Positions 1 through 18,074 of a DNA stretch of 18,074 nucleotides are shown piece by piece. The position numbers and the translations under genes are program-made. Source of the stretch: a virus; IMG/VR virus record IMGVR_UViG_3300045988_020153, positions 1-18,074 of that record. One strand, given 5' to 3'. Each line of letters starts with the position of its first letter. Position 1 is the stretch's first letter. A model generated the notes under the pieces. That model made no database searches. It was not told where the DNA came from and was given only the letters and a program-made list of their open reading frames with translations.

Positions 1-119
1 CATGCTTAGCTAAGTTACGGTTACGTAACCGTAGCTTATTTGCTGACCGTTTTGTGACTGTCTTTTATTTTTTTTGTTTTGTTTTGTTTTTGGGCGTGTC
101 GTTTGTTTGTTTGTGTTAT
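1..119. repeat. Left inverted terminal repeat (ITR-L), 119 bp
   Basis: 1-119 is the exact reverse complement of 17956-18074, compared base by base; identity breaks at 120/17955. Internal structure: palindromes cttagctaag (5-14) and tacggttacgtaaccgta (16-33), then T-rich short repeats (gtttt)x3 at 76-91 and (gttt)x3 at 101-112. Confidence 0.97.
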
Positions 120-122
120 AAT
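114..122 (+). promoter_or_regulatory. Left-end early promoter, extended -10 box TGTTATAAT
   Basis: TGnTATAAT straddles the ITR boundary, about 34 nt upstream of the ATG at 156. No convincing -35. The right end carries a mirror-image element. Confidence 0.6.
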
Positions 123-155
123 AAAGTATTGACCACAAGGGAAAGGAAAAATAAA

Positions 156-401: not shown

Positions 402-406
402 TAGTA

Positions 407-435
407 AAGCCCCTAGGTTATTAACCTAGGGGCTT
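407..435. terminator. Bidirectional rho-independent terminator between convergent genes
   Basis: Perfect 29-nt palindrome aagcccctaggtta-t-taacctaggggctt. It is followed by atttt on the plus strand, and its minus-strand reading is followed by tttact. It lies between the stop at 401 (+) and the stop at 452 (-). Confidence 0.85.
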
Positions 436-451
436 ATTTTATGCTGTCAAT

Positions 452-1105: not shown

Positions 1106-1106
1106 G

Positions 1107-1478
1107 TTAGTTTTCCTTCCTGTGTTTTGGGGTATTGTTTTGCGCGAATACACTCATAAACGGTGCGTCCGCCAGCTCGGGGTTGATGGCGGTGATGTTT
1201 TCCAGGATTGAGGTGAGTTCGATTAGGCTGATGCCGCCTACGGTGCATACGAATACGCTGACTGGAAGTCCCAGGTCAACGTGGAGATTGATCATATCTA
1301 TGAAATAGGCTACCAGGGTTAGCATGAGGTAGGCGAACTTGTGCCATAATCCTTGTCGCATTTTTTGTGAACTCAACGTGTTGTTGAGTATGGCTTTTGC
1401 GATACCGGTGGCGTAGTCCACAATGATGAAGAAAACTACTGCGAATACACACCATATGTCCGTTGTCGTCATTGTCAT
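1107..1478 (-). CDS. Holin (Phage_holin_4_1 / toxin-secretion holin-like)
   Basis: 123 aa with hydrophobic helices (VFAVVFFIIVDYATG, FAYLMLTLVAYFI, VFVCTVGGISLIELTSILEN). The D..TG and SI.EN motifs are typical of this holin family. It sits immediately upstream of the endolysin. Confidence 0.75.
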   Translation of the reverse strand: MTMTTTDIWCVFAVVFFIIVDYATGIAKAILNNTLSSQKMRQGLWHKFAYLMLTLVAYFIDMINLHVDLGLPVSVFVCTVGGISLIELTSILENITAINPELADAPFMSVFAQNNTPKHRKEN

Positions 1479-1489
1479 TGATTGTTTCC

Positions 1490-2557: not shown

Positions 2558-2579
2558 GCCTGCAAACCTCCTGAAACCA

Positions 2580-2615
2580 GTGGAGGGCGTGCGCCATGAC
2601 TCGCACGCCCTCCAC
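2580..2615 (-). other. 14-bp GC-rich hairpin in the ATPase leader (attenuator, terminator or RNA-stabilising element)
   Basis: gtggagggcgtgcg / cgcacgccctccac with an 8-nt loop. On the minus strand it is followed by tggtttc and then the AGGAGG RBS. The U-tract is weak. Confidence 0.5.
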
Positions 2616-2674
2616 AACCTATCATCTGGCGGCCGTTCAAGGGAAAGGTCATCACATAACCACCGCCACTATCA

Positions 2675-2683
2675 AGTATACCA
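2675..2683 (-). promoter_or_regulatory. Candidate promoter TGGTATACT upstream of the ATPase gene
   Basis: Extended -10-like box on the minus strand, 5 nt after the tail-lysin stop codon (2688-2690), within a 130-bp intergenic region. Confidence 0.4.
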
Positions 2684-2687
2684 CACT

Positions 2688-3899: not shown

Positions 3900-3922
3900 G
3901 CCACCATTATAGTGGCATGGCT
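3894..3922 (-). promoter_or_regulatory. 11-bp hairpin enclosing the tail-lysin start codon
   Basis: agccatgccac (3894-3904) pairs with gtggcatggct (3912-3922) around a 7-nt loop. The 3' arm in the mRNA contains the ATG at 3897-3899. On the minus strand the loop reads TATAATG. Confidence 0.55.
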
Positions 3923-3941
3923 ATGCGTGGATTATCGGAGA

Positions 3942-5381: not shown

Positions 5382-5560
5382 TGGTTTGCTCCCTTGGTTT
5401 CACGGATGAGGGTTTCCAGTTGGTGTATGAGTCGATCGATCATCACCATTGCCCGATTATATCCGTCGCGCAGATCGGACGGGGTATCATCGGTGTAGAG
5501 AGGTAGCCCGTAGGTTGTGGTGCGCCCGTACATGTCGCGGTTTTCGTCATTTTCATTCAT
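5378..5560 (-). CDS. 60-aa protein carrying only the fibre N-terminal anchor motif (mini-paralogue of the fibre N-terminus)
   Basis: Start at the ATG at 5560 (MNENDENRDMYGRTTTYGLPLYTDDTPSDLRDGYNRAMVMID...). Stop and start overlap as ATGA at both ends (5557-5560 and 5378-5381). It shares a 17-nt identical DNA core with the fibre gene. Confidence 0.6.
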   Translation of the reverse strand: MNENDENRDMYGRTTTYGLPLYTDDTPSDLRDGYNRAMVMIDRLIHQLETLIRETKGANQ

Positions 5561-5754
5561 GATCTTCTCTTTCTCTGATGTGGATGCAGTTCCCGCAAGA
5601 GTAAAAATTTGTCCGCATCCTTTTGCACGTCGAACCCCGCTTGAGAGCATACTTCATAGAGCGCGATATTAAGCTGGGTTCTAAAGTCGCGGCCTTCGGA
5701 ATCTTTCTTCCCCTGAACGGTTATCGAGCTTATCGTTTTTTTGACATCCATCAT
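5557..5754 (-). CDS. 65-aa hypothetical protein in the appendage cluster
   Basis: ORF whose start overlaps the upstream stop as ATGA (5751-5754) and whose stop overlaps the downstream start as ATGA (5557-5560). This indicates translational coupling. Confidence 0.5.
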   Translation of the reverse strand: MMDVKKTISSITVQGKKDSEGRDFRTQLNIALYEVCSQAGFDVQKDADKFLLLRELHPHQRKRRS

Positions 5755-6377
5755 TCCCTCCCTTTTTCGTGGACAATGAAATATGTCGCTTGGGTCCCCG
5801 GTGACGTGGCTCTGTCGACTGGAATATATCCTTTTTCCGGTGATTTCGGTGGCGGTGTCGGTCGCTGATTCTGAGGTCGGGGTGTGACTCTCGGATCCGG
5901 GTTGCCGAAGATATCCTTATTACCCAACACCGCCCAAGTGATGCAATCATGCTGTGCCGCCTGAGCCGTGGTTACGGTAGCCATCTGATTAACCCGCGCG
6001 CCGAATACGGCCAATTCGCGGTATATGTCTCGATGAGTGTTTTTCGAGTCCTCGTACTTGCCACGCGTCGGATTATAGGTCAAATCGGAGTCTTCATATT
6101 GTCCGACCTGCTTTTCCAAGTCATCCAGGGTTTCATTGATGCGCTCGAACTGCCCGTTGAAACCGGCTATCAGCTGCTTGATGGCTTCAACGTCCGCGTT
6201 CTCATCCTGGGCGAGATTGTCGAGCTGTTCCCTGAGTTGGTCGAGATGCTCGGCCACCTCCTGCACGTATCCGAGCACGGTAAGCGTGTCCCGGTATGAA
6301 AACGGCTGAACCGTGGTGAAATAGCGTTGCCGCGGGTCAATATCGAGCGGTGCGGCGCATAGGTTAATACCGTCCAT
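5751..6377 (-). CDS. Coiled-coil structural protein (neck/tail appendage candidate) with a Pro-rich C-terminus
   Basis: Start set to the ATG at 6377, directly after AGGAGG (6381-6386); the track start at 6401 is a TTG with no SD. Heptad-like acidic region LDQLREQLDNLAQDENADVEAIKQL. C-terminal RVTPRPQNQRPTPPPKSPE. Confidence 0.55.
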   Translation of the reverse strand: MDGINLCAAPLDIDPRQRYFTTVQPFSYRDTLTVLGYVQEVAEHLDQLREQLDNLAQDENADVEAIKQLIAGFNGQFERINETLDDLEKQVGQYEDSDLTYNPTRGKYEDSKNTHRDIYRELAVFGARVNQMATVTTAQAAQHDCITWAVLGNKDIFGNPDPRVTPRPQNQRPTPPPKSPEKGYIPVDRATSPGTQATYFIVHEKGRE

Positions 6378-6408
6378 AATCCTCCTAACTGTCAATGTCA
6401 AGTATACT

Positions 6409-7221
6409 CTAGTGACCGAGATTGTAGGCGAGTGACGTGGAATACAGTTGTGGCACGTTGGTCATATTGTCACCACTCCCCCACATGCCGAGGAAAAGGT
6501 TTTCGAGCGAGTTGATGACCATCATGTCGATGTTGAGCATGGTGTTACGCCAATCCTGCAAGAGCTGGGACTGGGATCCGCTGGTTCCCAGGGTATGCGA
6601 GGTGGAATTGCCCTTGTCGGAGGAATGTGCGTAATCCGTGTTGCTCGTGCTGGTTGCGGTGGCCGTGCTGTCCTGCTGTGTGCTTGTATGCGTGTTGCCT
6701 ATCGAGTCCGTTTGTGATGCGGTTGTGGCGTACTTGCGAAAATCGTCAATGCGAGTCTGCGGAAACTCGCTGTTGAACGTCATGCTGGAGTTGTCGGCGG
6801 TGGTGTCGGACGTGCTGTTGGCACTGGACTCGTTCGACTGTGTGCCGCTCGATTTGCCGCTGGACTCGTTCGTGCTCGTCGAGTCCATAGTCTGTTTAAT
6901 ATCCGACGTAATAAAGGGGTCGAACTTGCGCTGGGCGGACAGATAGAGTTGGTTGAAATAGTCCATCTGCTCCCGCATGGTACGCCCCAAATAAAATATG
7001 AACATTTGCGGGGTTTCGCTTCCTATTTCCCTGAGCGCGTAGTGGGCTACGATTTTCTCGTTGAGTTTCGCCCTATAGTTTTCGTCGAAAATCGGGTAAT
7101 ATTGAGCGCTCAAATGCAGTTTTTCGTCCGTATCGAAACCGCGTGCGATCAGATTGCCAAGCGTCAACGTGTAATCCGCCATGCTGTCTTTGATGGCGTA
7201 CATGCTCAAGTCCTGCACCAT
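6409..7221 (-). CDS. Lower collar protein (phi29 gp11-type)
   Basis: The N-terminal YYPIFDENYRAKLNEKIVAHYALREIGSETPQMF...MDYFNQLY matches the conserved lower-collar signature of phi29/44AHJD-like phages (from memory). It carries a long Ser/Thr-rich insert. It lies immediately downstream of the portal gene. Confidence 0.7.
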   Translation of the reverse strand: MVQDLSMYAIKDSMADYTLTLGNLIARGFDTDEKLHLSAQYYPIFDENYRAKLNEKIVAHYALREIGSETPQMFIFYLGRTMREQMDYFNQLYLSAQRKFDPFITSDIKQTMDSTSTNESSGKSSGTQSNESSANSTSDTTADNSSMTFNSEFPQTRIDDFRKYATTASQTDSIGNTHTSTQQDSTATATSTSNTDYAHSSDKGNSTSHTLGTSGSQSQLLQDWRNTMLNIDMMVINSLENLFLGMWGSGDNMTNVPQLYSTSLAYNLGH

Positions 7222-7223
7222 AT

Positions 7224-8162
7224 TTATTCCTCTTCCTTGTTTCCGTCAACGTCCAGGAGCCCGCCTGAAGTGGTGTCGTTCCATTCGATGCCGATTGGTT
7301 TCCCGGAGTCGGCCATTTGCGGCCACAGTCGGTTGATCGTGTCGCACGCCTGCTGACGCGCCTTCAAGTAGCTCAGGCGGAATACGTTCGTACGACTGTT
7401 TCCAGCCGTGACTTCCGACTCAAGCAACCTTTCTTTCTTCTCGGTGGTTGAATTGTCGATACCAAGATAGTTCACGAGTTCGTTCCAGATCTGCGTTTTC
7501 GTCGTGATGATCTTATCCGCCAAAAACGGGGTGACGTTGGGGAAGGTCTGGAACATGCCGGTAATGTCCGCCGAGTCGTACGTATAAATGTACGGGTCTC
7601 CGTCTTCCCTCGCTTTCATCAGGTTTTGGGCGGTGAGTTTGTTGGTTTCTGAAGTGGCGATGATCAACGGCACCGAAATGTTGTCGAGGTTGACGTCAAG
7701 CGCACGGTCGGCAATCGCCAATCGTGTGGCGTAATTCCACATGACATCGATCATGGTGCAACGAAGTTGGTTGTCCCAAATGGGCACGCATTCCTTCGAC
7801 CCTATTTGCGGGTGCGAGTAGTTCGTGGCTACGGGCTGAAAAAGCGTAGGATTATTATAGTTGTTGACTCCGCCGATATTGCCGGACGTGACCATGAAAC
7901 GGTGTACACCCTTGCGTTTGTCGGGGAAAAAGAGCGCCAAACCGTTCTCGAATAGGGTCAGTTCCAAATATCTTTCATCAATGTACGGGGGTAGGTTCAC
8001 CCATTTGAAACGCGACACCGCCAACATTTCAATCAATTTCATGTACTGGTTAATGCGCAATGATTGCCGCATTTCAGGTAGGTTCAAATTGCCCCACATT
8101 GAACCTAATACGCTCTGGTTGTCCCAGTGCGCGGCCTTGCGCGCGTTATTACGTTTGCCCAT
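7224..8162 (-). CDS. Portal / upper collar connector (phi29 gp10-type)
   Basis: Start at the ATG at 8162 (MGKRNNARK...). FKWVNLPPYIDERYLE compares with phi29 FEWENLPPTINPSFLE, and EKKERLLESEV with EKKERMVTDEV. The N-terminus is basic, as in gp10. Confidence 0.88.
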   Translation of the reverse strand: MGKRNNARKAAHWDNQSVLGSMWGNLNLPEMRQSLRINQYMKLIEMLAVSRFKWVNLPPYIDERYLELTLFENGLALFFPDKRKGVHRFMVTSGNIGGVNNYNNPTLFQPVATNYSHPQIGSKECVPIWDNQLRCTMIDVMWNYATRLAIADRALDVNLDNISVPLIIATSETNKLTAQNLMKAREDGDPYIYTYDSADITGMFQTFPNVTPFLADKIITTKTQIWNELVNYLGIDNSTTEKKERLLESEVTAGNSRTNVFRLSYLKARQQACDTINRLWPQMADSGKPIGIEWNDTTSGGLLDVDGNKEEE

Positions 8163-8174
8163 AATTACCGTCCT

Positions 8175-8212
8175 AAAAAACAATGGAGAGAGCTTATTAC
8201 GCTCTCTCCATT
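8175..8212 (-). terminator. Rho-independent terminator between the tail-knob and portal genes
   Basis: 12-bp stem aatggagagagc / gctctctccatt with a 7-nt loop. On the minus strand it is followed by gtttttta. It is probably leaky, because the portal gene follows 13 nt later. Confidence 0.7.
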
Positions 8213-8216
8213 ATAT

Positions 8217-10457
8217 CTAGTATGCGATACCGGCCAGCGGCACGTTGTCCGCATAATCGGTGACGCCGATCTTGTCGGGGTCAGTCCATACGGTCACGCC
8301 CGACTCAAAAATGCCCTTGACCGTCAATCGGTACTCTTCTGGGCACGTGCTCGAACGTATGTACAATTCGTGCAGTTTCCAGTAGGTGAAATTGCTCATG
8401 GCCATAAGGTTTGTCGGAAGTTTCATAAACCTTTGCACGTAATACCCGTAGCGCAACCACACTTCGCCAATGGATCGCATGGCGGCGGGCGATATCTGCC
8501 GGAAACGTACCATGACACCAATCAGGCCGTTAGCCAAATTAAAAGCGTCACCGCCCAATGCGCCGGACGTGGTTGGCGGTACGGTTTGCGTCTGTTGTAC
8601 CTGGGCGTTGATGCCGGCGATCGTGTTCTCGTAATCGCCTTGCGCCGTCGCCTGAGCCAACTGTTTGTTCATATCTGCGAGCTGCATTGTCTGCTGATTG
8701 GACAGATTGGTTTGCGCGAGGCTGTAGGCGTTGGCCTGTGACGTTGAAGCGTTGTTGGTGGTTTGCGTGTTCGCCAATTGCTGGTTCGCGCTTGACACGT
8801 TGTTGTCGTAAGTCATTTGGTTTGTCCACGCGCCGATTGCGGTGCCTGCGATGGCTCCGGCCACACCGCCAATATCGCCCGTGACTGCGGAACCGACCGC
8901 GTTGGCCACACCCGATCCGATGGTGTTGATTTGCGCCATCTGATTGTTGAAGCCGAGGTTTTTCAGCGTCAAGTCGGTACTCATTTGCGCGCTCTGGTTG
9001 CTGATGGCGTTCATGGCGTTGCGGTTCGACGTGCCGAGCCGGTTTTGGGCGCTTGCATATTGCGTGCCGAGTTGGGCTTGAGCGTAGGCGTTGTTGATGC
9101 CCATTTGAGTTTTCTGGAAACCCCAGTCCGCGCTTTGTTGGGCGTATTGGCGCGTGTACGCGCTGTTCGCAAGAGCGAGAGCTGACCCGTTGTTGACGGT
9201 CATGAAGGTGGGGAAATTGGTCATGCCGAAGGACGCGTTGAGCATTTCGCCCGTATCGATAGGCAGTCCCTTACCGTCTGTTAGTGGTTGACGTTCGCCC
9301 AGGTTTCCGGCATGGTAGCCGCGCGCGTAAAAGTTCAGACGGGGCGACGGTGGCGCGTAATTCCATGATTCTCGAATAATCAGGTCAGCGCTTGGAATCT
9401 GTTCCGGCTCGTATGTGATCACGGTGCCGTTCAGGCACGAGCATTCGATATAGGCATATGGCGCTGTGAGGAACTTTTTCAGATACTTGTAGCGTTCCGG
9501 CACCTGGAAAGCATCGCGGAAGTTTTTGAGATTGATGATGTCCGTGTAGCGGGCGTTGCTATTGTCGTTACGCTTGCGCAATTCCCAGCAATTGCCGACG
9601 AAACCGACCGAGTGGCCGAAAAGTTCCGTTTTCTTGGGCTGTCCGTCCAACAACGCTTGCGGCAGATGTGGTACGGCGTAGATGCCGCAAATTCCCTGAG
9701 TGACCCACGGTGCGCTCATGCCTTCGGTGAAGAATGCGACAATATCGGTGGGCGTATCCAAATAGTACATGGATGTGCCATTAAACTGACTTTCGAACGC
9801 GCTACCCGTGGCGGTGTTGACCACCGGGTTAACCTTGGTGCCCGTATCGGCGTCCAGATCGGTGGTGCTTACGATGATCAGCCCGTAGGATGTATATTTC
9901 ACGCCATCGTGAGTGCCAATATCCATGAGCGGTTTCCATGACTCATTCGTGAGTACGGTGCATTTGCCGGTATCCAAGCCCTCCGGTAGGTCGAGATACG
10001 TTTTGCCGTAGTCTTTCCAGGCGTTCTCGTTCGCGATCCCCACATGGCCGCGTTCGACGTAGGCGTTACCCAATGTAATATCGTGTTGGAAGCTCTGCCA
10101 CACGTCAAGCTGGATGTTTAACTGTGTGGTGTTGGCGTTGATATAGTCGCATGTCTGGATGAAATAATACCAACTACGGGGGGTGTCAAAATCGTAATCG
10201 TTCGTGGCGATCAGATAATTATATTGGCATGCTTGGGCGAACGGCACGGGCAGTCGTACCGGCAGTCCGTATTTCGCCATGGTGCAGTTTGTGAACTCGA
10301 TGCCGTCCAGCTGGTTGAAATACTCTTGCTGAGCCGGTCTGTCCCATTTTACGATATCCCTGTAGCCCATGTCCCACGGGACGTTGCAGAGTTTGAACCG
10401 TGTGTTTGGCGTCCATTTCGCGTAGCTGAAGTTTATAGGCAAGTCGTTTGCGCTCAT
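8217..10457 (-). CDS. Tail knob / distal tube protein (phi29 gp9-type) with a large Q/N/A-rich insertion
   Basis: The N-terminal third parallels phi29 gp9. TRFKLCNVPWDMGYRDIVKW compares with VRILADVPFSNDYKNTRWF. WYYFIQTCDYINANTTQLNIQLDVWQSF...YVERGHV compares with [31 protein letters not shown]...IVREHV. AGGAGGG RBS at 10462-10468. Confidence 0.8.
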   Translation of the reverse strand: MSANDLPINFSYAKWTPNTRFKLCNVPWDMGYRDIVKWDRPAQQEYFNQLDGIEFTNCTMAKYGLPVRLPVPFAQACQYNYLIATNDYDFDTPRSWYYFIQTCDYINANTTQLNIQLDVWQSFQHDITLGNAYVERGHVGIANENAWKDYGKTYLDLPEGLDTGKCTVLTNESWKPLMDIGTHDGVKYTSYGLIIVSTTDLDADTGTKVNPVVNTATGSAFESQFNGTSMYYLDTPTDIVAFFTEGMSAPWVTQGICGIYAVPHLPQALLDGQPKKTELFGHSVGFVGNCWELRKRNDNSNARYTDIINLKNFRDAFQVPERYKYLKKFLTAPYAYIECSCLNGTVITYEPEQIPSADLIIRESWNYAPPSPRLNFYARGYHAGNLGERQPLTDGKGLPIDTGEMLNASFGMTNFPTFMTVNNGSALALANSAYTRQYAQQSADWGFQKTQMGINNAYAQAQLGTQYASAQNRLGTSNRNAMNAISNQSAQMSTDLTLKNLGFNNQMAQINTIGSGVANAVGSAVTGDIGGVAGAIAGTAIGAWTNQMTYDNNVSSANQQLANTQTTNNASTSQANAYSLAQTNLSNQQTMQLADMNKQLAQATAQGDYENTIAGINAQVQQTQTVPPTTSGALGGDAFNLANGLIGVMVRFRQISPAAMRSIGEVWLRYGYYVQRFMKLPTNLMAMSNFTYWKLHELYIRSSTCPEEYRLTVKGIFESGVTVWTDPDKIGVTDYADNVPLAGIAY

Positions 10458-10465
10458 AAAACCCT

Positions 10466-10506
10466 CCTAAAAATAATAGGTGTGAATAAAGTCTATCCAC
10501 ACCTAT
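10466..10506 (-). terminator. Terminator/attenuator after the capsid gene
   Basis: 9-bp stem ataggtgtg / cacacctat (10476-10484 and 10498-10506) with a 13-nt loop. On the minus strand it is followed by tattttta and then the RBS of the next gene. Confidence 0.6.
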
Positions 10507-10527
10507 CTTAGCGGCTGGTTATCATCG

Positions 10528-12243
10528 CTATGCGGTGACGGTGACCTTTGCCGTTCCGACAGCTCCCGCAAACTTCACGGTGACGTTGGCGGTGCCCGCT
10601 GTGGTTCCGGTCAGCACTCCATTGGGGGTGATGGTCGCGTGGGCGTCCACCGTCCACGTGGCGAGATTGGTCACGTCTGCGGTGTTGCCGTCCGTCTTGG
10701 TGGCGATCGCCTTAAGAGCCACATTGCCGTTCACTTTGACCGACTTTTCGCCCTGGATCTCGACGGACTCGATGGCTCCGGCCTTCCAGCCGCCAAGCCA
10801 AGTGCCGACGACCGGCACGGATAGCGCGGCGGAAACGGTCTGGTCGATTTCGGGCGTTGCCGGATCGATGTAGGTGGCCTGGGCGGTGACTTTAAGCGTT
10901 TCGGCGGTTTCATCCAAACCGCAACGAAGGATACCGTCGTTATCAATGGTGGTGAACTGAGAGGTTGCGCCCTCGACCGCGTACTTGATGCCGGTTGGCT
11001 GGAATGTCGCCGTTTCCTTGTTGGCGCTGGTAATGACGGACTCGACTTGCACCAAGTCGCCACGGGACACGTTTTCCGGAGTGATGGCGGACTGTCCATA
11101 CTTGCGCACGCGCAAGGTAAACTCGGGCTTCGAGGTGGTGAGTGTGTCCGGCAACGTCACGGACTCGTTGGAGCCTTTGCCCGTCCAGAACAGGATCGCG
11201 TTCGCGAACGGGTTCGGAGTGATGCTACCCCTGTGCTTGTAGAAGATATTGCGCGTGCCGTCAATCGGGTTCACGGGGGAGTTCGTCGTTTCCAACATTT
11301 CATCCCAGCAGAAGAAAAAGTCCTCCGTGGTGAGCACGGCCTGTACCTTGCCGCCCTGTCCGCCGATACCGAACATATCCTCCGGAATCGGGATAATACG
11401 GTACGGGACGTTAACCTTGTCAATGTTGAACGCGGCGGCCAATGCTTCCACGTTGAGAGCGGCGATAACCTGCGGAGTGGCGAACAAGATCGCTTCACTA
11501 TCTCGCCACGGAGTCACCCAACTCATGGCATTATACCGTGGCATGGCGCTCATTGGCGACGCCTTCAGCTCGTTCGCCATCTGCTGAATAAGGCGCAGTA
11601 GTCCCTTCGCGTCCGCTTCAGTCGAGTCGGCCTTACCAACGTCCGGGGTATGCACTCGATAGAACCCACCCTTACGAGCGTATTCCGCGAAGGTCTGCGT
11701 CTTCATGAGATACATGTCATTGCGGTCGGACAAGATCGGCGCGTTCATGATCTCAGCGATATAATCCGACATGCCACTTTCGCCGTCGAACGCGGTCAAC
11801 AAGGCGTCTTCAGGGATAGTGACGGGGTAATAATGATCGAACGTGAGCGGGTGGAATACGGACGCGGTCGGGAGACTGTAGTGCCCGTAAACGTCGTCGC
11901 CCAAATATTCCTTATTGAAGTTGCGAGTGCGTGCCTTGACGAGACCAACTGCGGCCTGCTCGTAAGTGGAGCCGTAGCGCTTGAGCGTGCGCGGGGAGCC
12001 GATCAGCTTCAGCTGGTCATCCCAATCAGCGTGCTGGATATAGAGCCCAATGAGACGCTGGATCAGCACGCCGGTGAACTCGTCACGAAGGTAGGGGAAG
12101 TTGCGCATGGTGTCCACGGCGTTCCTAATATTGCCCTGCGTGGCGCTCGGAATGCGTGTCTGGAACTGCGGGGACGTGGCGTTGCGGACGGCGTTGAAGA
12201 TCTCAACGTCACCCTTGCCGGCCAATGGTCGAATATTGGACAT
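10528..12243 (-). CDS. Major capsid protein with C-terminal Ig-like (Big_2-type) domain(s)
   Basis: 571 aa, directly after the scaffold gene, as for phi29 gp7-gp8. The C-terminal ~90 aa (IESVEIQGEKSVKVNGNVALKAIATKTDGNTADVTNLATWTVD...GVLTGTTAGTANVTVKFAG...AKVTVTA) is a textbook Big_2 pattern. A second Ig-like segment lies upstream of it. Confidence 0.8.
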   Translation of the reverse strand: MSNIRPLAGKGDVEIFNAVRNATSPQFQTRIPSATQGNIRNAVDTMRNFPYLRDEFTGVLIQRLIGLYIQHADWDDQLKLIGSPRTLKRYGSTYEQAAVGLVKARTRNFNKEYLGDDVYGHYSLPTASVFHPLTFDHYYPVTIPEDALLTAFDGESGMSDYIAEIMNAPILSDRNDMYLMKTQTFAEYARKGGFYRVHTPDVGKADSTEADAKGLLRLIQQMANELKASPMSAMPRYNAMSWVTPWRDSEAILFATPQVIAALNVEALAAAFNIDKVNVPYRIIPIPEDMFGIGGQGGKVQAVLTTEDFFFCWDEMLETTNSPVNPIDGTRNIFYKHRGSITPNPFANAILFWTGKGSNESVTLPDTLTTSKPEFTLRVRKYGQSAITPENVSRGDLVQVESVITSANKETATFQPTGIKYAVEGATSQFTTIDNDGILRCGLDETAETLKVTAQATYIDPATPEIDQTVSAALSVPVVGTWLGGWKAGAIESVEIQGEKSVKVNGNVALKAIATKTDGNTADVTNLATWTVDAHATITPNGVLTGTTAGTANVTVKFAGAVGTAKVTVTA

Positions 12244-12261
12244 TACTTATACCTTTCTGTT

Positions 12262-12549
12262 TTAGTCGAACAAATCTTCGATGGACTCGGTGCTGTCATT
12301 GTCTCCGTTGCCGTCATTGTCGGACGGTGCGGGGTCGGTGTAGCCGAGCGTGTCCAGCATGGCCTTCAGTCCGGCCAATTCCTTTTCAATCGCGTCAAGT
12401 CGAGCGGAAACGTCCGGCTCCTGTTTCAGATCCGGTTCCGGCTCGGGTTCTTTCGGCTTGACTTCATCGTCTACGGTTTCGGTCTGCCGTTCCTCTTCGG
12501 TCGGCGGCGGAGTGGTGTTTTCCTCGCCGTCATTGTCTGGGTCTGCCAT
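12262..12549 (-). CDS. Scaffolding protein candidate (phi29 gp7 analogue)
   Basis: 95 aa, very acidic and Pro/Glu-rich, with a central helical LDAIEKELAGLKAMLD segment. It is the first gene of the late operon, immediately upstream of the capsid gene, and has an AGGAG RBS. Confidence 0.6.
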   Translation of the reverse strand: MADPDNDGEENTTPPPTEEERQTETVDDEVKPKEPEPEPDLKQEPDVSARLDAIEKELAGLKAMLDTLGYTDPAPSDNDGNGDNDSTESIEDLFD

Positions 12550-12584
12550 ACAAACTCCTAACGATTGGCAATGTTTCCGCTAAA

Positions 12585-12593
12585 ATTATATCA
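12585..12593 (-). promoter_or_regulatory. Late-operon promoter, extended -10 TGATATAAT, no recognisable -35
   Basis: Exact TGnTATAAT on the minus strand, about 36 nt upstream of the scaffold ATG (12549) and just downstream of the terminator at 12612-12633. It is bracketed by the inverted repeat tttccgc (12574-12580) / gcggaaa (12598-12604). Confidence 0.65.
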
Positions 12594-12599
12594 TGTGGC

Positions 12600-12633
12600 G
12601 GAAAATAAAATGACCCCGCAATCACGCGGGGTC
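12600..12633 (-). terminator. Rho-independent terminator ending the early/replication transcript and the candidate ncRNA
   Basis: 8-bp GC stem gaccccgc / gcggggtc with a 6-nt loop. On the minus strand it is followed by attttattttcc. Confidence 0.85.
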
Positions 12634-12771
12634 GAAACGTCCCATGTGAGCGCGAGTTGAAGATCGTAGGGCACTACCGCCACGATAGTGATTTTCACGG
12701 GTCGGCGGCATTCTCAGCCGTGGCAGTCCGACTCATGTCGCTCCCAGTCGAAAATCGACGCTCAGGAAGAC
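12600..12771 (-). ncRNA. Candidate ~170-nt non-coding RNA (pRNA-like packaging RNA candidate)
   Basis: 217-bp ORF-free gap between pol and the late operon. Its own TGCTATAAT box lies at 12778-12786, predicting a TSS near 12771. Transcript nt 3-12 pair with nt 119-131 (10 bp with a 3-nt bulge). Hairpins sit at 12747-12759 (loop AUUUU) and 12688-12698 (loop AAAAU). A terminator hairpin at 12612-12633 is followed by a U-tract. Confidence 0.5.
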
Positions 12772-12777
12772 ATGATC

Positions 12778-12786
12778 ATTATAGCA
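12778..12786 (-). promoter_or_regulatory. Promoter TGCTATAAT overlapping the polymerase stop codon
   Basis: Exact TGnTATAAT on the minus strand. The TAA stop of pol (12779-12781) lies inside the -10 hexamer. Confidence 0.55.
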
Positions 12787-14230
12787 TGACCATTGTGCCG
12801 TAATCATCCATGACTTGCACGCCATGTCTAAACTTCTCGTAGGGGATGGGCTGGGAGAACATGTTCCCGGCCATGCATACGTCAACCTCTCCGTCGTCCC
12901 TCCATCCCTGATACCGGTTCATACCCAGGATAGTCAACTTCTCATATCGTGCGGCGATCTTCCATTTCCCAAGTTCGGTCGGGTGTATGTCGCATGATTT
13001 CACCGGATCCCAACCGCTCAGGATGCAACCGTCCGTGTTCGCATACAATAGTCGATCGGCGTTCGCGTGGCACACGTCCATAAGCTTGCGGCGTGCGTAG
13101 GCGTTGACCCATACGGGCACGGGCAGATAGTCGGTTTTCAGGTTCGATTCTTCGCGCTGGGCGACATCCCAGTCCAATGTTATGCCGTCTTTGGAGGTGG
13201 GGAGCATGACGTTGCCCTTGGGCAGACTCGCCATTTTGCCTACGAGAGCGTTCATGATCAGTTTCGCCATCTGCCGTTTCTCGCCCGTCGTCCGTTGTTT
13301 CAAGTCACCCCATTCATCCACGAACGAGCGGAAATAGCCTTTTGAGCGGCGGAACTTCCACCCTCGAACATGCTGGTATATAGTCACTTCGTAATTGTCG
13401 TACAGTAGTTGCTGGTCAATGTCGGTCAATACTCTTGTGATATAGCCACGAGTGGAAGTGAGCCGGTTGAGTCCGTATATACTGCGATTATCAAGTAGAA
13501 ATGGGTAGCCGTTTGGTTTGAGTTCCGCACGAAACGTGAGTTCGTCACAATGCAATGGCATAGCATCATCTTGGACATATTTGCCGTCGTACGGTTCCGG
13601 TTCACCCCACGGCAACCACTCGTCCCGTAATATGGACGGATACATGCTATTGCAGTCAACGTCAATAGCCTTGCCATACGCCCCCTCCCTGACTAACATG
13701 AAACCGCCGATATAGGCGTCATGCAATGACTTTTTCGTATCCGATTCGAGTTGCGGGAATTTGTCATAAAACCATTTCCACTCGCCGGACGCAAAAGCCT
13801 CCATACTCGCCCCGCCCGCAGTGATCTTGCACAAGTTGCGATTATCATACTCACGCAGAATATTGAGTAGTTGCGTGCCGGTCATGGTGATACGGCAGTT
13901 CTCACGCAAAAGATTCGATATATCGAAAAATCGTGCGGAATTTTCACGGTCGATACGCACGCTAAAGCTGAAAAATTTGCCTTTTTTCGAGATGATGGCG
14001 TCCCAGCTCAGATTAGCATTGTGTTCGTTGTGGGGCAATGAGTGTACGACGTGCGCAATAAACGGATCTAAAGTGTCTGGGTCAGTCACATATATAGTGA
14101 GTTTGCCGCCCGTCATTATGTACTCCAAAAGGCAGTTAGGCGCGGTGACGTCACGCAAGACGGTTCCGTCCGTGAATCGTATGACGTTATCCGCGCACCA
14201 CAACCCCACTCTTTTATCTTGCCTGGTCAT
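12779..14230 (-). CDS. Protein-primed family-B DNA polymerase (phi29 gp2-type), 483 aa
   Basis: Motif A is IDVDCNSMYPS. LPWGEPEPYDGKYVQDDAMPLH compares with phi29 LPYGEPIVFEGKYVWDEDYPLH (TPR1 region). Motif B is KLIMNALVGKMAS. A TPR2-like insertion is present. Motif C is LLYANTDGC. LGKWKIAARYEKL compares with LGYWAHESTFKRA. The exonuclease motifs are degenerate (see findings). Confidence 0.95.
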   Translation of the reverse strand: MTRQDKRVGLWCADNVIRFTDGTVLRDVTAPNCLLEYIMTGGKLTIYVTDPDTLDPFIAHVVHSLPHNEHNANLSWDAIISKKGKFFSFSVRIDRENSARFFDISNLLRENCRITMTGTQLLNILREYDNRNLCKITAGGASMEAFASGEWKWFYDKFPQLESDTKKSLHDAYIGGFMLVREGAYGKAIDVDCNSMYPSILRDEWLPWGEPEPYDGKYVQDDAMPLHCDELTFRAELKPNGYPFLLDNRSIYGLNRLTSTRGYITRVLTDIDQQLLYDNYEVTIYQHVRGWKFRRSKGYFRSFVDEWGDLKQRTTGEKRQMAKLIMNALVGKMASLPKGNVMLPTSKDGITLDWDVAQREESNLKTDYLPVPVWVNAYARRKLMDVCHANADRLLYANTDGCILSGWDPVKSCDIHPTELGKWKIAARYEKLTILGMNRYQGWRDDGEVDVCMAGNMFSQPIPYEKFRHGVQVMDDYGTMVML

Positions 14231-14257
14231 GGTACAACTTTCTTTGATTGACTGCCG

Positions 14258-15220
14258 CTACTTTTCCAATGCGCCCGCTTCCATCATCCATCGGTCGAAC
14301 TGCCGTCGCGAACGCTGATAGCCCTCGCTGTTGTCACGGAACACTGAAGTAAAACCGTGGCGCACTGGGTCATATACCGTCCAGTCGAACACGATACGGG
14401 GGGCGTCAGTCTGTTCGATGAACGCGCGTTTTTGTGCGGCTGAGAGTTGGCGGAATCGTTTCAACCGTTTCGAGCCGAGCGTGGTAGCCAAGATCTTCTC
14501 GAACACCTCATAACGTTCGCGGCTCATATAGGAAGGCCAATCATGATCACCATACAATTCTTTAGTCTGTTTGCCTGTTCCCTGCTTTTTGGACGGTTTG
14601 CTTTTTCGTTCGGTGCGCAATCCCAATATTTCTGCGGCATCGTGCATCTGATCCAGTAGTTCGTTGCGATGGCCGCTTTCCAGTTGGGAGCGCACGAAAG
14701 CTTCATCGCTCAGCACGTCGGTCATTTGCAGGAAGTCCGTGAGTTTCGATGGGATGATCTGATTACGTCCGAAGCCTTCACCGGTGGTGCCGGTGATCTC
14801 GGCCACACGCTGATCATACACGCTACGTTGTGGCATGGCCTGAGCTTTGTTCCATTCGTTGATTTTCCGTCGTGCCGCATTGATTTTCCGCTGTTGCTGT
14901 CGCAAGAGTTTACGTCGCTTCGCCACCGGCTCCGCCTGAATTTGCGCGTCTGTGATGGGTGTGCGCCCTGCGAACATGATGTCTTTTTTCGTCGGCTTTT
15001 CGATGGCGGTGGTGTGGTATGGGGTTGCTTTCGCTTCCGCTATGGCATGTTTCTTCTGCCGTTCCCACTCTTTGCCTAATGTTTTCGCGATGTTGACTAG
15101 TTGTTGGTCTGCGGTTTTGGCGAGATTGGAATAGGAGTAACTGCCAAGTTGTTTGATATTACGGGCGGCGCGTGCTTGCGCGGCTTGACGTGCCTTGACA
15201 TGCTTTTGCTTTCGAGACAT
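14258..15220 (-). CDS. Terminal protein candidate (primer for protein-primed replication)
   Basis: 320 aa and strongly basic (KQKHVKARQAAQARAAR, KRRKLLRQQQRKINAARRKIN). It lies immediately upstream of PolB, like phi29 gene 3. The C-terminal FRDNSEGY (Ser298) resembles the phi29 TP priming context FDSEG as I remember it. No other similarity is visible by eye. Confidence 0.55.
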   Translation of the reverse strand: MSRKQKHVKARQAAQARAARNIKQLGSYSYSNLAKTADQQLVNIAKTLGKEWERQKKHAIAEAKATPYHTTAIEKPTKKDIMFAGRTPITDAQIQAEPVAKRRKLLRQQQRKINAARRKINEWNKAQAMPQRSVYDQRVAEITGTTGEGFGRNQIIPSKLTDFLQMTDVLSDEAFVRSQLESGHRNELLDQMHDAAEILGLRTERKSKPSKKQGTGKQTKELYGDHDWPSYMSRERYEVFEKILATTLGSKRLKRFRQLSAAQKRAFIEQTDAPRIVFDWTVYDPVRHGFTSVFRDNSEGYQRSRRQFDRWMMEAGALEK

Positions 15221-15242
15221 ATGGCACAGTCCTTAAGATGGC

Positions 15243-15267
15243 GAGAGCACCCAAGTTGGGTGCTCTC
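15243..15267 (-). other. Hairpin without a U-tract between the SSB-like and TP genes
   Basis: gagagcaccc (15243-15252) pairs with gggtgctctc (15258-15267) around a 5-nt loop. The flanks are not T-rich on either strand. Confidence 0.5.
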
Positions 15268-15301
15268 TATGGATGAACGCTACTCAGTTATTATAGCAAG
15301 C

Positions 15302-15736
15302 TCACTTGGTTTCCTTGTCCACCGGCTCGATGCTGAAAAACTTGAAGCCACGACGGGAGCGGCGTTCGACAACCTTGATGCATAGCGGTTCCGTCCAGGT
15401 GTTCGGCGTGCCGAAGATCCCGAACATGGTGTTGAGTCCCGCCGCGAGAGTGGGGGAGGTGGCCGCGTACGCCTTGTTGTCATCGGTCACGATGACGACG
15501 CGCACGGTGTTGGAGATTTCGCCGGTCTGGTCGTCGGTCACCTGCACGGCCTGGGCTACTGCGTTCGTCATGTTCAGCGGCTCGTTGAGGTGTTCGTCGA
15601 GCTTTTCGGCGTTCTGCAATGCGCTGTAGAGCTTGATCTTGCCTTCACGAGTGCTTGTGTCGATGAAGTGTTGGACGGTGCCAAGTTCGGTGTTCTCGGT
15701 GTTGAACGCGACGAGTGCGGTATTGGTGTTTTCCAT
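15302..15736 (-). CDS. Single-stranded DNA-binding protein (phi29 p5-like)
   Basis: It begins MENTN, as phi29 p5 does. NAVAQAVQVTDDQTGE...AYAATSPTLAAGL...IKVVERRSRRGFKFFSIE parallels p5 NAIAQYKQVSDTYGD...LYSAISKTVAEAA...VKVVQGTSSKGNVFFSLQ (from memory). AGGAAAGG RBS. Position upstream of TP and pol. Confidence 0.6.
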   Translation of the reverse strand: MENTNTALVAFNTENTELGTVQHFIDTSTREGKIKLYSALQNAEKLDEHLNEPLNMTNAVAQAVQVTDDQTGEISNTVRVVIVTDDNKAYAATSPTLAAGLNTMFGIFGTPNTWTEPLCIKVVERRSRRGFKFFSIEPVDKETK

Positions 15737-15792
15737 TGGTTAACCTTTCCTAGATTGTTGTTATTTTATTTTCAGGCTTATGCCTAAAATCT

Positions 15793-15801
15793 TTTATATC
15801 A
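15793..15801 (-). promoter_or_regulatory. Candidate promoter TGATATAAA upstream of the SSB-like gene
   Basis: Extended -10-like box on the minus strand. Its TGA is the stop codon of the upstream gene. It lies about 57 nt upstream of the ATG at 15736. Confidence 0.4.
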
Positions 15802-16116
15802 CACGTCTTCGTTATTTTTAACGTCGGCGTGTCTTTTGTTTGTATGTTCTTCGGGGTTCCATTCTTGAGGTTCCTCAAAAGTCGCATACTTATAAAAAGT
15901 CTCCTCATTCATTGAGACCTTTTGCGAAAAAATGTTGATAGAACGTGGAATGAAATCCGGAAACAGTTTCTTCGCACGAATCGAATACGCGCGTGCGTCT
16001 TTCAAACGTCCGTCGATAACATGCTCCGCTTCCAGGAAGTCACCATCCACTAATTCCATGCCCTTAAGCACGGCATAGACGCGCGTGCGAAAAATTTCGG
16101 TTTTCATTCGTGCCAT
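15799..16116 (-). CDS. Histone-like dsDNA-binding protein candidate (phi29 p6-like)
   Basis: 105 aa against about 104 aa for p6. MARMKTEIFRTRVYAVLKGMELVDGD compares with p6 MAKMMQREITKTTVNVAKMVMVDGE. EETFYKYATF compares with VEKFLEVATV. The C-terminal tail is acidic. All comparisons are from memory of the p6 sequence. It is the first gene downstream of the consensus promoter. Confidence 0.5.
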   Translation of the reverse strand: MARMKTEIFRTRVYAVLKGMELVDGDFLEAEHVIDGRLKDARAYSIRAKKLFPDFIPRSINIFSQKVSMNEETFYKYATFEEPQEWNPEEHTNKRHADVKNNEDV

Positions 16117-16131
16117 GAGATTCTACCTTTC

Positions 16132-16641
16132 CTATTCAAAGATTTTTTGCAATTCTACGTCATTATATCGTGTCATGTCCAGTCTGTCAAAATTTTTAAA
16201 CACGGCAATAATCAGTTTTTCCGCTTGAGGACTATCAAAAACCGTGCAACAGTCATATGACGTGCCGCCCTTGACGGCACAGACCGCGCACCATGCAATC
16301 AAATTAGGCGGATTGATGGAACCGTCCAAATATTCAACGTCGGACGTGCGGGATAGGGCGGCAGAGAGTCCGTCCCACATAGTCAGACTCCCGCATATCC
16401 GAGATACAGTAACCACCGCTTGCGTAAACCACTCACCAGGCGCTTCACGCCACAACTCACACAACATATTGACGGCGCGACAACATGTTTCAAAATCGCC
16501 ATATCCAACGTCATACCGTTCCAGATTCAGCTCGCAGGTACGCCCCCGCGTAGCCCTGACAATACGCGGCGACTCCATGATGGCATCATCAAAATCACGC
16601 ATACGATAGATCGGAGTCCTATCATCACCACGCCTAAACAT
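16132..16641 (-). CDS. 169-aa early protein of unknown function (Cys/Trp-rich)
   Basis: Start chosen at the ATG at 16641, 7 nt after GAGGAG. An alternative ATG at 16743 (GAGG + 6 nt) would add 34 Arg-rich residues. No recognisable motif. Confidence 0.6.
   Translation of the reverse strand: MFRRGDDRTPIYRMRDFDDAIMESPRIVRATRGRTCELNLERYDVGYGDFETCCRAVNMLCELWREAPGEWFTQAVVTVSRICGSLTMWDGLSAALSRTSDVEYLDGSINPPNLIAWCAVCAVKGGTSYDCCTVFDSPQAEKLIIAVFKNFDRLDMTRYNDVELQKIFE
16162..16190 (-). promoter_or_regulatory. Perfect consensus sigma-A/sigma-70 promoter TTGACA-N17-TATAAT (strong early promoter)
   Basis: The minus strand reads tttaaaaatTTGACAgactggacatgacacgaTATAATgacg. The -35 is at 16185-16190, the -10 at 16162-16167, and the spacer is exactly 17 nt. 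An A/T-rich UP-like tract lies at 16191-16200. The promoter sits about 45 nt upstream of the ATG at 16116. Confidence 0.8.
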
Positions 16642-16812
16642 AGTACCGCTCCTCAACGCGAAAATAACCGATATTCTCCGTATGAGACCGGATAGCCGCC
16701 CACCGTTTAACCAAATCCGCCGCATCCTTGTATGAGGACGCATAACCGACCTCGATAGGCGGCTTGCGCGCATCCCTCAAGTATGCAAGAGCCACGAAAA
16801 TACTATACATGT

Positions 16813-17016
16813 CTAAAACTCCAATTCATCAACAAAATCACTATCACCATACAGCCACATGACCGCCCACAACCGCCGATCAGGGCAACGTTTCGGAGGA
16901 TCAGTAGCGCTCCGCTTATGCCGTCTCCCAGCCCAAAACGCGCGCAAACGCCAATAACTATCAGCGTCCGGGCACGTGCCGCACGCCCACGAATGTACCC
17001 AACCGCGAAAATACAT
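16813..17016 (-). CDS. 67-aa early protein of unknown function (Trp/Arg-rich)
   Basis: ATG at 17016 preceded by the GAGGAG RBS. It forms a tight junction with the upstream gene. Confidence 0.55.
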   Translation of the reverse strand: MYFRGWVHSWACGTCPDADSYWRLRAFWAGRRHKRSATDPPKRCPDRRLWAVMWLYGDSDFVDELEF

Positions 17017-17019
17017 GTT

Positions 17020-17265
17020 TTAACTCCTCTCTATTAAGGGCGTGCGGGCAATATCGATAGCGTCAACAAGCACGTCCGCCACCTGGTTATAGTCGGTAGC
17101 ACTATACGACGCCACCCCCACAGCCGAACACAATCCCTCCGGCGAGTGAAACACCACATCATACTTCAGCCTATACGACTGACTATGAGAGCAATACCAC
17201 AATTCCACATCACCGCCACAATGTTGAGACGGAAACACAGCAACCTTCATATCACAATAACGCAT
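17020..17265 (-). CDS. 81-aa early protein of unknown function
   Basis: The ORF is in line with its neighbours. The start is uncertain: the ATG at 17265 has a weak SD, and the ATG at 17250 is an alternative. Confidence 0.45.
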   Translation of the reverse strand: MRYCDMKVAVFPSQHCGGDVELWYCSHSQSYRLKYDVVFHSPEGLCSAVGVASYSATDYNQVADVLVDAIDIARTPLIERS

Positions 17266-17281
17266 GACCAGAGATCTTTCA

Positions 17282-17437
17282 CTACAAAACCAATACGATA
17301 GACACGCACACAATCAGCATGACCAGAAAACACATTGCGTCACGCATATCACGCGGTGCCTCAGAAAACACTTCAGCACCCGCAGCAATCAGCAGGATCG
17401 CAAACAAGACAACAACAATAACCACATCAATCATCAT
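17282..17437 (-). CDS. 51-aa small membrane protein with two predicted TM helices
   Basis: MMIDVVIVVVLFAILLIAAGA...MCFLVMLIVCVSIVLVL. The start ATGATGA overlaps the stop of the upstream gene (17427-17437), suggesting translational coupling. Confidence 0.5.
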   Translation of the reverse strand: MMIDVVIVVVLFAILLIAAGAEVFSEAPRDMRDAMCFLVMLIVCVSIVLVL

Positions 17438-17675
17438 AACACCACGGTCCACTGTTAAAAGCCCTACTAAGCTCTTGAAAATCAATGCCACGACAGTATG
17501 CAATTCCGTCGTCTACGTCGATAAACTCCATAAGAGATACCCAACGGCCACGGTCTAGATCAAATATTGCAAACCGGTAATCCACACCACAGTAGTCGCA
17601 TGGATGCTCACACCACCGAAAACGACGGTCTAACCCCGTGTACGTGTCAACAACAGTAAAATAATGCCATTCCAT
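17427..17675 (-). CDS. 82-aa early protein of unknown function with a Cys/His cluster
   Basis: ATG at 17675, 6 nt after GGAGG (17682-17686). It contains WCEHPCDYCG, a possible small metal-binding knuckle. Confidence 0.6.
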   Translation of the reverse strand: MEWHYFTVVDTYTGLDRRFRWCEHPCDYCGVDYRFAIFDLDRGRWVSLMEFIDVDDGIAYCRGIDFQELSRAFNSGPWCYDD

Positions 17676-17689
17676 GATTTGACCTCCAA

Positions 17690-17920
17690 TCAAACGAGCG
17701 AAACCTTAACCATGCCAACCATCGTACCGTCAAGATCAAACGTGGCATTATCAATATCCACACCCACATTACGCCCAACATAAGCGCTACGAACATAAGA
17801 CAACACGCCATCCAACGACGCTTTCAACGACGCTGTATGAAACATGCCACTAGGCTTCACACAGTCAGACAAAACCTCAAAAACCTGAAAACCATCATCA
17901 GCAATAATGAAATACCACAT
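17690..17920 (-). CDS. 76-aa immediate-early protein of unknown function (first gene from the right end)
   Basis: ATG at 17920 preceded by caagggaaaggaaataaa. This is nearly the same RBS cassette as the left-end gene. Confidence 0.65.
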   Translation of the reverse strand: MWYFIIADDGFQVFEVLSDCVKPSGMFHTASLKASLDGVLSYVRSAYVGRNVGVDIDNATFDLDGTMVGMVKVSLV

Positions 17921-17947
17921 TTTATTTCCTTTCCCTTGAAGTTGATA

Positions 17948-17956
17948 GTTATATCA
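17948..17956 (-). promoter_or_regulatory. Right-end early promoter, extended -10-like TGATATAAC
   Basis: On the minus strand at the ITR boundary. An overlapping alternative, TGTTATGAT, lies 5 nt upstream. It is about 28 nt upstream of the ATG at 17920 and mirrors the left-end promoter. Confidence 0.5.
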
Positions 17957-18074
17957 TAACACAAACAAACAAACGACACGCCCAAAAACAAAACAAAACA
18001 AAAAAAATAAAAGACAGTCACAAAACGGTCAGCAAATAAGCTACGGTTACGTAACCGTAACTTAGCTAAGCATG
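17956..18074. repeat. Right inverted terminal repeat (ITR-R), 119 bp
   Basis: Exact reverse complement of 1-119, carrying the same palindromes and A-rich mirror of the T-rich repeats. Confidence 0.97.

Follow-up and report, generated by a model that had tools for sequence, protein, structure and literature searches.

A shortened protein-primed DNA polymerase with a degenerate exonuclease domain, encoded by a linear phage genome related to phi29

Introduction

The 18,074-bp stretch of DNA analysed here (the window; positions 1 to 18,074 of IMG/VR virus record IMGVR_UViG_3300045988_020153) is the complete or near-complete linear genome of a small Bifidobacterium phage related to phi29, and the DNA polymerase encoded on its minus strand raises the question of whether such a genome is replicated with proofreading. 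The phi29-type polymerase is the textbook single-subunit replicase, uniting protein priming, extreme processivity, strand displacement and proofreading. An initial annotation, made from the letters of the window, had described the gene product as a shortened protein-primed family-B polymerase (pPolB) with a degenerate exonuclease site. This description is borne out by profile-profile alignment, by a structure model matching phi29 DNA polymerase (DNAP) over its full length and by a survey of relatives, and the same three lines of evidence favour its central prediction of weak or absent proofreading. To judge from the sequences, the whole lineage has probably lost the proofreading active site, so that these phages would copy their DNA without error correction. 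The coordinates of the features are summarized in Table 1.

Table 1. Coordinates of the polymerase gene, its motifs and associated features in the window.
Feature	Position	Strand	Description	Evidence
DNA polymerase gene	12779..14230	(-)	483 aa plus stop; short-clade pPolB	Translation, Pfam, phi29 match, AF2, Foldseek
Exonuclease-domain remnant	13841..14230	(-)	Residues 1-130; remnant of 3'-5' exonuclease domain, fold core kept	hhalign, acidic-conservation table, site table, pLDDT, dN/dS 0.07-0.12
Motif A	13637..13657	(-)	DCNSMYP; D192 = phi29 D249 (metal ligand) and Y197 = steric-gate Y254, both kept	D and Y in 17/17 short-clade representatives
Motif B	13238..13264	(-)	KLIMNALVG; K323, N327, G331 kept; V330 replaces near-universal Tyr (phi29 Y390)	Alignment
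Motif C	13028..13045	(-)	YANTDG; N398 replaces phi29 D456; D400 = D458 kept; G401 replaces Ser (S459)	Alignment
KxY motif	12911..12919	(-)	NRY (residues 438-440, in GMNRYQG); Lys (phi29 K498) lost, Tyr kept	Alignment
Shortened thumb	12782..12868	(-)	About 29 aa after conserved AG; canonical median 46 aa	Alignment
Putative terminal protein gene	14258..15220	(-)	320 aa, basic N-terminus, directly upstream of polymerase gene	Synteny only
Single-stranded DNA-binding protein gene	15302..15736	(-)	phi29-type SSB	Pfam Phi29_Phage_SSB 5.8e-17; phrog_6243 5.9e-20
Left inverted terminal repeat	1..123		123 nt; presumed replication origin	99% complementary to 17952-18074
Right inverted terminal repeat	17952..18074		Presumed replication origin	Pairs with 1..123

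Polymerase gene and retained core

The window protein is a pPolB by profile, by fold and by its TPR1 and TPR2 regions. With phmmer, residues 131-439 align to phi29 DNAP residues 183-499 (E 3.8e-41), and the Pfam family DNA_pol_B_2 (PF03175) is matched with 95.1 bits against a cutoff of 25.8 (5.8e-27); the Pfam match covers only residues 135-384, and the N-terminus thus goes unrecognised by the family model. An AlphaFold2 (AF2) model was built from an alignment of short-clade sequences only (the clade of 454-496-aa enzymes described below), and has a mean predicted local distance difference test score (pLDDT) of 90.5, with about 87-93 over residues 11-130, and a predicted template modelling score (pTM) of 0.88. 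In Foldseek the model matches phi29 DNAP (1xhx_A) over its whole length (E 1e-37; query-normalised template modelling score, TMq, 0.83). The fold, with palm, fingers, TPR1, TPR2 and thumb, is shared with phi29 gp2 and with other canonical pPolBs (GA-1, Av-1, Curtobacterium phage Reje). The aligned TPR1 and TPR2 segments are of canonical length (97 and 35 aa), and a beta-hairpin is predicted at residues 340-358.

The protein is 92 aa shorter than phi29 DNAP. The exonuclease domain accounts for about 57 of the missing residues and the C-terminal part for about 35, approximately 17 of the latter coming from the thumb tail (clade medians). The position of motif A (D192 for D249, with 57 residues missing N-terminally) agrees with the shift of about 58 aa given in the initial annotation.

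Conservation was assessed in a MAFFT alignment of phi29 DNAP, the window polymerase and 140 representatives of 50%-identity clusters. In phi29 numbering, D249, D458, Y254, K383, R438 and G391 are kept in 17/17 short-clade representatives, and K371 and Y500 in 16/17. With the canonical enzymes the window polymerase shares motif A, the Lys and Asn of motif B, the second Asp of motif C and the Tyr of KxY; YxGG is also present, and the Lys preceding motif B is K311. The catalytic carboxylates of phi29 DNAP, D249 and D458 (PMC4974454), are therefore both retained, as D192 and D400.

Other positions have changed. Relative to phi29, D456 is replaced by Asn, S459 by Gly, K498 by Asn, Y390 by Val and T434 by Asn. 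Three classical pPolB signatures are missing, namely the motifs of the exonuclease, the first motif-C Asp and the Lys of KxY, and the motif-B Tyr is lost as well. The readings of motif C (with codon AAC at 13037-13039 for N398) and of KxY at residues 438-440 had been given correctly at the outset; the loss of the motif-B Tyr and the truncated C-terminus of the thumb go beyond what had been described then, and follow the same pattern.

Degeneration of the exonuclease domain

The N-terminal domain is a true homologue of the exonuclease domain, as follows from profile-profile comparison. A profile of the clade's N-terminal 135 residues was aligned with hhalign to a canonical exonuclease-domain profile (phi29 residues 1-190 plus 98 representatives with intact motifs), giving 96.3% probability (E 1.2e-9) in global mode and 96.5% (E 9.8e-10) in local mode, where residues 16-109 align to phi29 29-127.

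Compared with phi29, however, the window enzyme has lost every catalytic and single-stranded-DNA-binding motif residue of the exonuclease. The segment carrying ExoI (about residues 2-15 in phi29, with D12 and E14) falls in an alignment gap, and there is no DxE in the N-terminal part of the window polymerase; ExoI, first aligned by eye to CADNV, thus appears to be deleted rather than substituted. The ExoII positions N62 and D66 align to unconserved residues. The ExoII Asp that was initially thought to be kept, D55, is offset by 1-2 positions from phi29 D66, and is acidic in 86% of close homologues and in 25% of the wider clade. A stretch of about 35 residues with K143, Y148, Y165 and D169 (Kx2h and ExoIII) is deleted; this gap, already proposed for ExoIII, was recovered by the profile alignment, and the loss takes the Tyr and Asp of ExoIII plus the N-terminal half of its helix.

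The same holds across the clade. Each of D12, E14, N62, D66, K143, Y165 and D169 is present in 99/99 canonical representatives and in 0/17 of the short clade. Within residues 1-135 the clade has no conserved Asp/Glu column; the highest acidic conservation (about 76%) is that of D103, which aligns to phi29 D121, outside the tabulated exonuclease catalytic set. A complete DxE / Nx2-3D / Yx3D triad, which would have contradicted the initial annotation, was not found in residues 1-135 by alignment.

Validity of the substitutions and of the start codon

An explanation by artefact, i.e. that N398 and the short N-terminus stem from a sequencing or assembly error or from a wrong start codon, has a negligible probability. 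NTDG is found in 120/120 listed database homologues (75-90% identity, 482-484 aa), which are independent database clusters and include cultured phages, and Asn is encoded by AAC in the window and in phage BD811P2 but by AAT in Bifidobacterium phage BP1. Pairwise ratios of nonsynonymous to synonymous substitution rates (dN/dS) lie at 0.06-0.12 for the first 130 codons and for the polymerase domain alike, dS being close to or at saturation. Because NTDG is universal among these homologues, the Asn codon varies synonymously and dN/dS is low, a sequencing error at N398 (the second finding that would have spoken against the initial annotation) and a decaying pseudogene are both excluded.

The start codon is the point at which the artefact explanation finds some footing, as GenBank starts differ among relatives: the annotated polymerase coding sequence of BP1 (L002 4813-6264) begins 12 codons downstream of the conserved N-terminus (471 aa), and that of BD811P2 (L007 1501-2952) 38 codons downstream (445 aa). 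The protein sequence of the N-terminus (MT..D.RVGLWC...) is, however, conserved in all relatives, beginning in the window with the ATG at 14230 and in BD811P2 with a GTG start, and the two annotated starts are probably mis-called. Further, the upstream open reading frame (ORF) stops 27 nt before the ATG, and there is no exonuclease-like sequence upstream.

The short clade and its relatives

The closest cultured relatives are phages of Bifidobacterium. The polymerase of BP1 (host B. pseudocatenulatum) is 85% identical to that of the window and has NTDG, and those of BD811P1-3 (host B. dentium) are 75-77% identical. More distant are the polymerases of the honeybee B. asteroides phages BadAztec and BadAargau (Badaztecvirus), at about 33% identity. 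The clade is abundant in human-gut metagenomes and includes cultured phages; BP1 is a podovirus that has been isolated, propagated and imaged by electron microscopy (PMC12694917).

In a neighbour-joining (NJ) tree on Kimura distances (not maximum likelihood, and with primer-independent piPolBs not included), the window polymerase nests among pPolBs of phi29-like phages, and the short clade (454-496 aa, Badaztecviruses included) is monophyletic in 100/100 bootstraps. In its members the polymerase domain is preceded by a median of 139 aa (190 aa in canonical enzymes) and the thumb tail measures about 29 aa (canonical 46 aa), with TPR1 and TPR2 unchanged in length. The Lys of KxY is present in 99/99 canonical and 0/17 short-clade representatives. 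The motif-B position of phi29 Y390 is Tyr in 90/99 canonical representatives and in 0/17 of the short clade (Val 8, Ile 6, Thr 2, Ala 1). The first Asp of motif C (phi29 D456) is present in 99/99 canonical representatives, while within the short clade motif C reads DTDS (6), DTDG (3), NTDG (7) or NTDN (1); Asn is confined to sequences that have already lost the Ser of this motif. Sequences with NTD are not monophyletic (0/100 bootstraps), so that NTD arose or reverted more than once.

The Badaztecvirus polymerases (BadAztec1, BadAargau2) and other metagenomic short-clade pPolBs resemble the window enzyme in length range, exonuclease remnant, loss of K498 and Y390, short thumb and gene order, and the AF2 model superposes on a model of the BadAztec1 polymerase with a root-mean-square deviation of 2.7 A and a template modelling score of 0.83-0.85. 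The identity of this group to the window enzyme is low (31-33%), and the Badaztec-type enzymes differ further in that DTDS is kept in motif C.

Loss of exonuclease residues was also observed outside the short clade. Thirteen longer pPolB representatives (510-589 aa; P0150, P0155, P0191, P0199, P0200, P0206, P0209, P0216, P0224, P0226, P0230, P0259 and P0260) are without the ExoI, ExoII and ExoIII catalytic residues, keep K498 and mostly have DTDS; some retain relic motifs, e.g. 'YIHDL' for 'YFHNL'. Ten of the 13 group beside the short clade in the NJ tree, whereas P0200, P0209 and P0260 are each paired with a representative that is exonuclease-proficient. On this sequence evidence, inactivation of the exonuclease may be widespread among uncultured phi29-like phages, of which the short clade seems to be the most reduced form.

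Predicted function of the polymerase

The window polymerase is likely to be an active, strand-displacing but non-proofreading minimal replicase that evolved from a pPolB fold of the exonuclease-proficient type. An active replicase is the simplest reading because purifying selection is strong and cultured relatives are viable. Replication would start by priming with a terminal protein (TP) at the inverted terminal repeats and continue by processive strand-displacement synthesis, with no 3'-5' exonuclease activity. The exonuclease remnant would probably be kept because, with TPR2, fingers and palm, it helps to wall in the downstream-template tunnel; a narrow tunnel of this kind underlies strand displacement in phi29 (PMC4974454).

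The further losses may fit the same scheme. In phi29, K498 stabilises the primer terminus (Blasco 1995, as quoted in a citing paper), and the thumb C-terminus coordinates synthesis and degradation (PMC1475753). If the roles of K498 and of the thumb tip are thus primer stabilisation and partitioning between the polymerase and exonuclease sites, we infer that both could be lost because the constraint on them was relaxed once there was no editing site left. Since no exonuclease would be present, base selection would be the only source of fidelity, and genomes should mutate at a higher rate than that of phi29; the change of Y390 to Val may, speculatively, relax base selection further.

Several points weigh against this interpretation. 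Identity to phi29 in the N-terminal alignment is only about 10%, and in the close Bifidobacterium-phage clade eight acidic residues of this region (D14, E69, D77, D94, D103, E110, E127, D129) are each at least 98% conserved, so that a non-canonical nuclease site formed from clade-specific residues is just conceivable there. Both Asp residues of motif C are reported as required in phi29 and in Pol alpha (Bernad 1990, Copeland and Wang 1993, as cited in PMC5695915), and the tolerance for Asn in motif C is argued from the analogy with piPolB and from phage viability. Finally, the TP is putative, its identification with ORF 14258-15220 being drawn from synteny: this ORF gave no match to the TPs or upstream ORFs of phi29, Av-1, Reje and CH17P1 by hhalign or BLAST (probability <1%), and its AF2 model from a shallow alignment is of low confidence (pLDDT 53.6). 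The order SSB gene, ORF of about 330 aa, polymerase gene is common to BP1, BadAargau2, L009 and L010.

Should the conserved acidic residues form a nuclease site, or should an exonuclease act in trans (a host DnaQ-like epsilon subunit or an unannotated early phage protein), proofreading would be retained in another way. This is unlikely. The eight acidic positions are acidic in only 0-56% of the wider short-clade sequences, and the structural elements that bear ExoI and ExoIII are physically absent. As to a trans-acting phage protein, several early ORFs have no detectable family in Pfam or PHROGs, and one of them, ORF 16132-16773 on the minus strand (213 aa), contains GDFET, which is the canonical pPolB ExoI consensus. 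This occurrence was judged coincidental: the ORF gave E 24 with a hidden Markov model (HMM) of the canonical exonuclease domain and no Pfam or PHROG match. Over all six-frame ORFs the HMM matches the polymerase ORF alone (E 0.008), and no helicase, second polymerase or recognisable nuclease was found in the genome with Pfam, PHROGs and this HMM. The first 45 or so residues of ORF 16132-16773 are Arg-rich, which suggests that its real start codon lies further downstream.

The substitutions in the polymerase domain raise a different possibility, namely that D456N, K498N and Y390V have crippled the enzyme, so that it serves in TP-primed initiation or short synthesis, or in a structural role, and a host polymerase elongates. 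We regard this as very unlikely, even though K498 and D456 are each present in 99/99 canonical pPolBs and the reported requirement for both motif-C Asp residues would speak for it. Throughout the polymerase domain, fingers, TPR2 and thumb included, purifying selection is strong, and none of the metal ligands, steric-gate or dNTP-binding residues has been lost. Moreover, DTDS and NTDG members of the short clade share one genome architecture. We know of no mechanism by which a TP-primed end is handed to the bacterial replisome.

The role of the first motif-C Asp is relevant here. This residue is usually assigned to a catalytic triad that takes part, 'directly or indirectly', in the binding of metal and primer (PMC3792054). 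On the other hand, piPolB, with SxTTDG and without KxY, is a proficient polymerase, and its authors concluded that metal coordination needs the second carboxylate only (PMC5695915). Of the initial view that NTD is an unusual active-site variant, the Asn itself stands, while its exotic character is reduced by the active SxTTDG of piPolB.

A more far-reaching version of the proposal, that a gut and honeybee Bifidobacterium phage lineage replicates double-stranded (ds) DNA with a proofreading-free, miniaturised pPolB whose active site converged on the piPolB-type xTDG and which dropped the fidelity- or translocation-linked Tyr and the KxY Lys, is tentative and, as a whole, doubtful.

Comparison with other polymerases lacking canonical motifs

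A parallel for motif C is offered by piPolB, in which the first Asp is also replaced and Ser is changed to Gly (SxTTDG, against YANTDG in the window); the xTDG pattern is shared, but with Asn in the window instead of Thr. In piPolB, too, the canonical KxY is not kept and TPR1 and TPR2 are present. The two differ in other respects: piPolB has an active exonuclease (D59/E61), a KH-X8-KTRG motif and de novo priming, and is encoded by circular integrative elements (pipolins), whereas the window polymerase reads NRYQG, lacks an exonuclease site and belongs to a linear phage genome that ends in inverted terminal repeats. The likeness in motif C is most likely convergent.

The pPolBs of mavirus and polinton-like viruses (PLVs) have likewise lost most or all exonuclease function, with only a remnant left, and are predicted to be of lower fidelity (PMC11161782). 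These enzymes carry N-terminal TP and vOTU domains, and their loss of the exonuclease was accompanied by gain of a helicase, S3H or fused S1H (PMC11161782). The window protein differs in that it starts directly with the exonuclease remnant and keeps TPR2, and in that no helicase was found in its genome; the mavirus model is a distant structural match only (TMq 0.48).

In archaeal PolB2 (B2/G2 group), ExoI is unconserved, ExoIII is missing and motif C has one conserved Asp (PMC7544198). Unlike the window polymerase, these are RNA/DNA-primed cellular enzymes without TPR1 or TPR2, their context is unrelated, and none is the sole replicase of its genome.

Individual features of the window polymerase thus have precedents in piPolB, mavirus and archaeal PolB2; what is new is their combination in a new lineage, not the principle. 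Exonuclease loss in these phages is not mentioned in a review of phi29-like phages (PMC11476376), in a paper on polymerase swapping (PMC11348598) or in the report on the isolation of BP1 (PMC12694917).

Genome properties

The window resembles phi29 genomes in its linear DNA with inverted terminal repeats, in its phi29-type SSB and in a phi29-like major capsid protein (MCP), connector, tail and packaging ATPase. The phi29-type late genes comprise those for the major head protein, upper collar connector, adaptor or lower collar, tail protein and packaging ATPase, and the late region also encodes a holin and two lysins; the SSB gene is part of the early region. Nearly all genes are on the minus strand, whereas the early and late blocks are divergent in phi29. 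A 230-nt gap follows the polymerase gene (12550-12778), with a GC-rich hairpin (about 12612-12633), a T run (12602-12610) and TATAAT (12585-12590); it looks like the early/late operon boundary, with both operons on one strand, unlike in phi29. The gene order is shared with distant short-clade genomes (L009 and L010, GC 50-53%), in which the SSB gene, an ORF of about 335 aa, the polymerase gene, an ORF of about 100 aa and the MCP, tail and connector genes follow one another as in the window.

The inverted terminal repeats hold T-rich TTTTG/TTTGT runs. Past the 123-nt repeat, a weaker similarity (77%) extends over 1-154 and 17920-18074 through the leader 'AAGGGAAAGGAAA(A)ATAAAATG', and the inward-reading terminal genes hence share a near-identical ribosome-binding site and start context. 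A 22-nt internal copy (91% match) of a segment of the repeat, 'GGCGTGTC(G/T)TTTGTTTGT...', is found at 15826-15847, in the gap between the SSB gene and ORF 15799-16116, overlapping the last codons of that ORF; it could be a regulatory site or a site for an origin-binding protein. A weaker second copy is located at 7624-7651.

The two lysins are encoded by separate genes (452-1153 and 2688-3899, both on the minus strand), both with endolysin/amidase-type N-terminal domains, and several PHROGs match both. One gene adjoins the holin gene and the other a tail-spike-like gene; the latter may encode a virion-associated lysin.

Conclusion

The clade represented by the window polymerase has discarded the proofreading site and the residues that coordinate the polymerase and exonuclease sites, yet it is under strong purifying selection. 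Three questions become directly testable. One is what share of the exonuclease domain strand displacement and TP binding require purely as a scaffold. Another is whether base selection by itself can sustain an 18-kb dsDNA phage, and which mutation rate and diversity would follow for Bifidobacterium phage populations. The third is whether it is chiefly the partitioning of the primer between two sites that constrains the first Asp of motif C, the Lys of KxY and the Tyr of motif B. The short-clade enzymes are natural candidates for compact, exonuclease-minus, strand-displacing polymerases of biotechnological interest. If the more far-reaching version of the proposal is true, these dsDNA phages would mutate unusually fast, at rates close to those of single-stranded DNA or RNA viruses; alternatively, the enzyme might have altered priming or translesion properties. 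It would also go against the suggestion that pPolBs as a rule make up for a lost exonuclease by acquiring a helicase.

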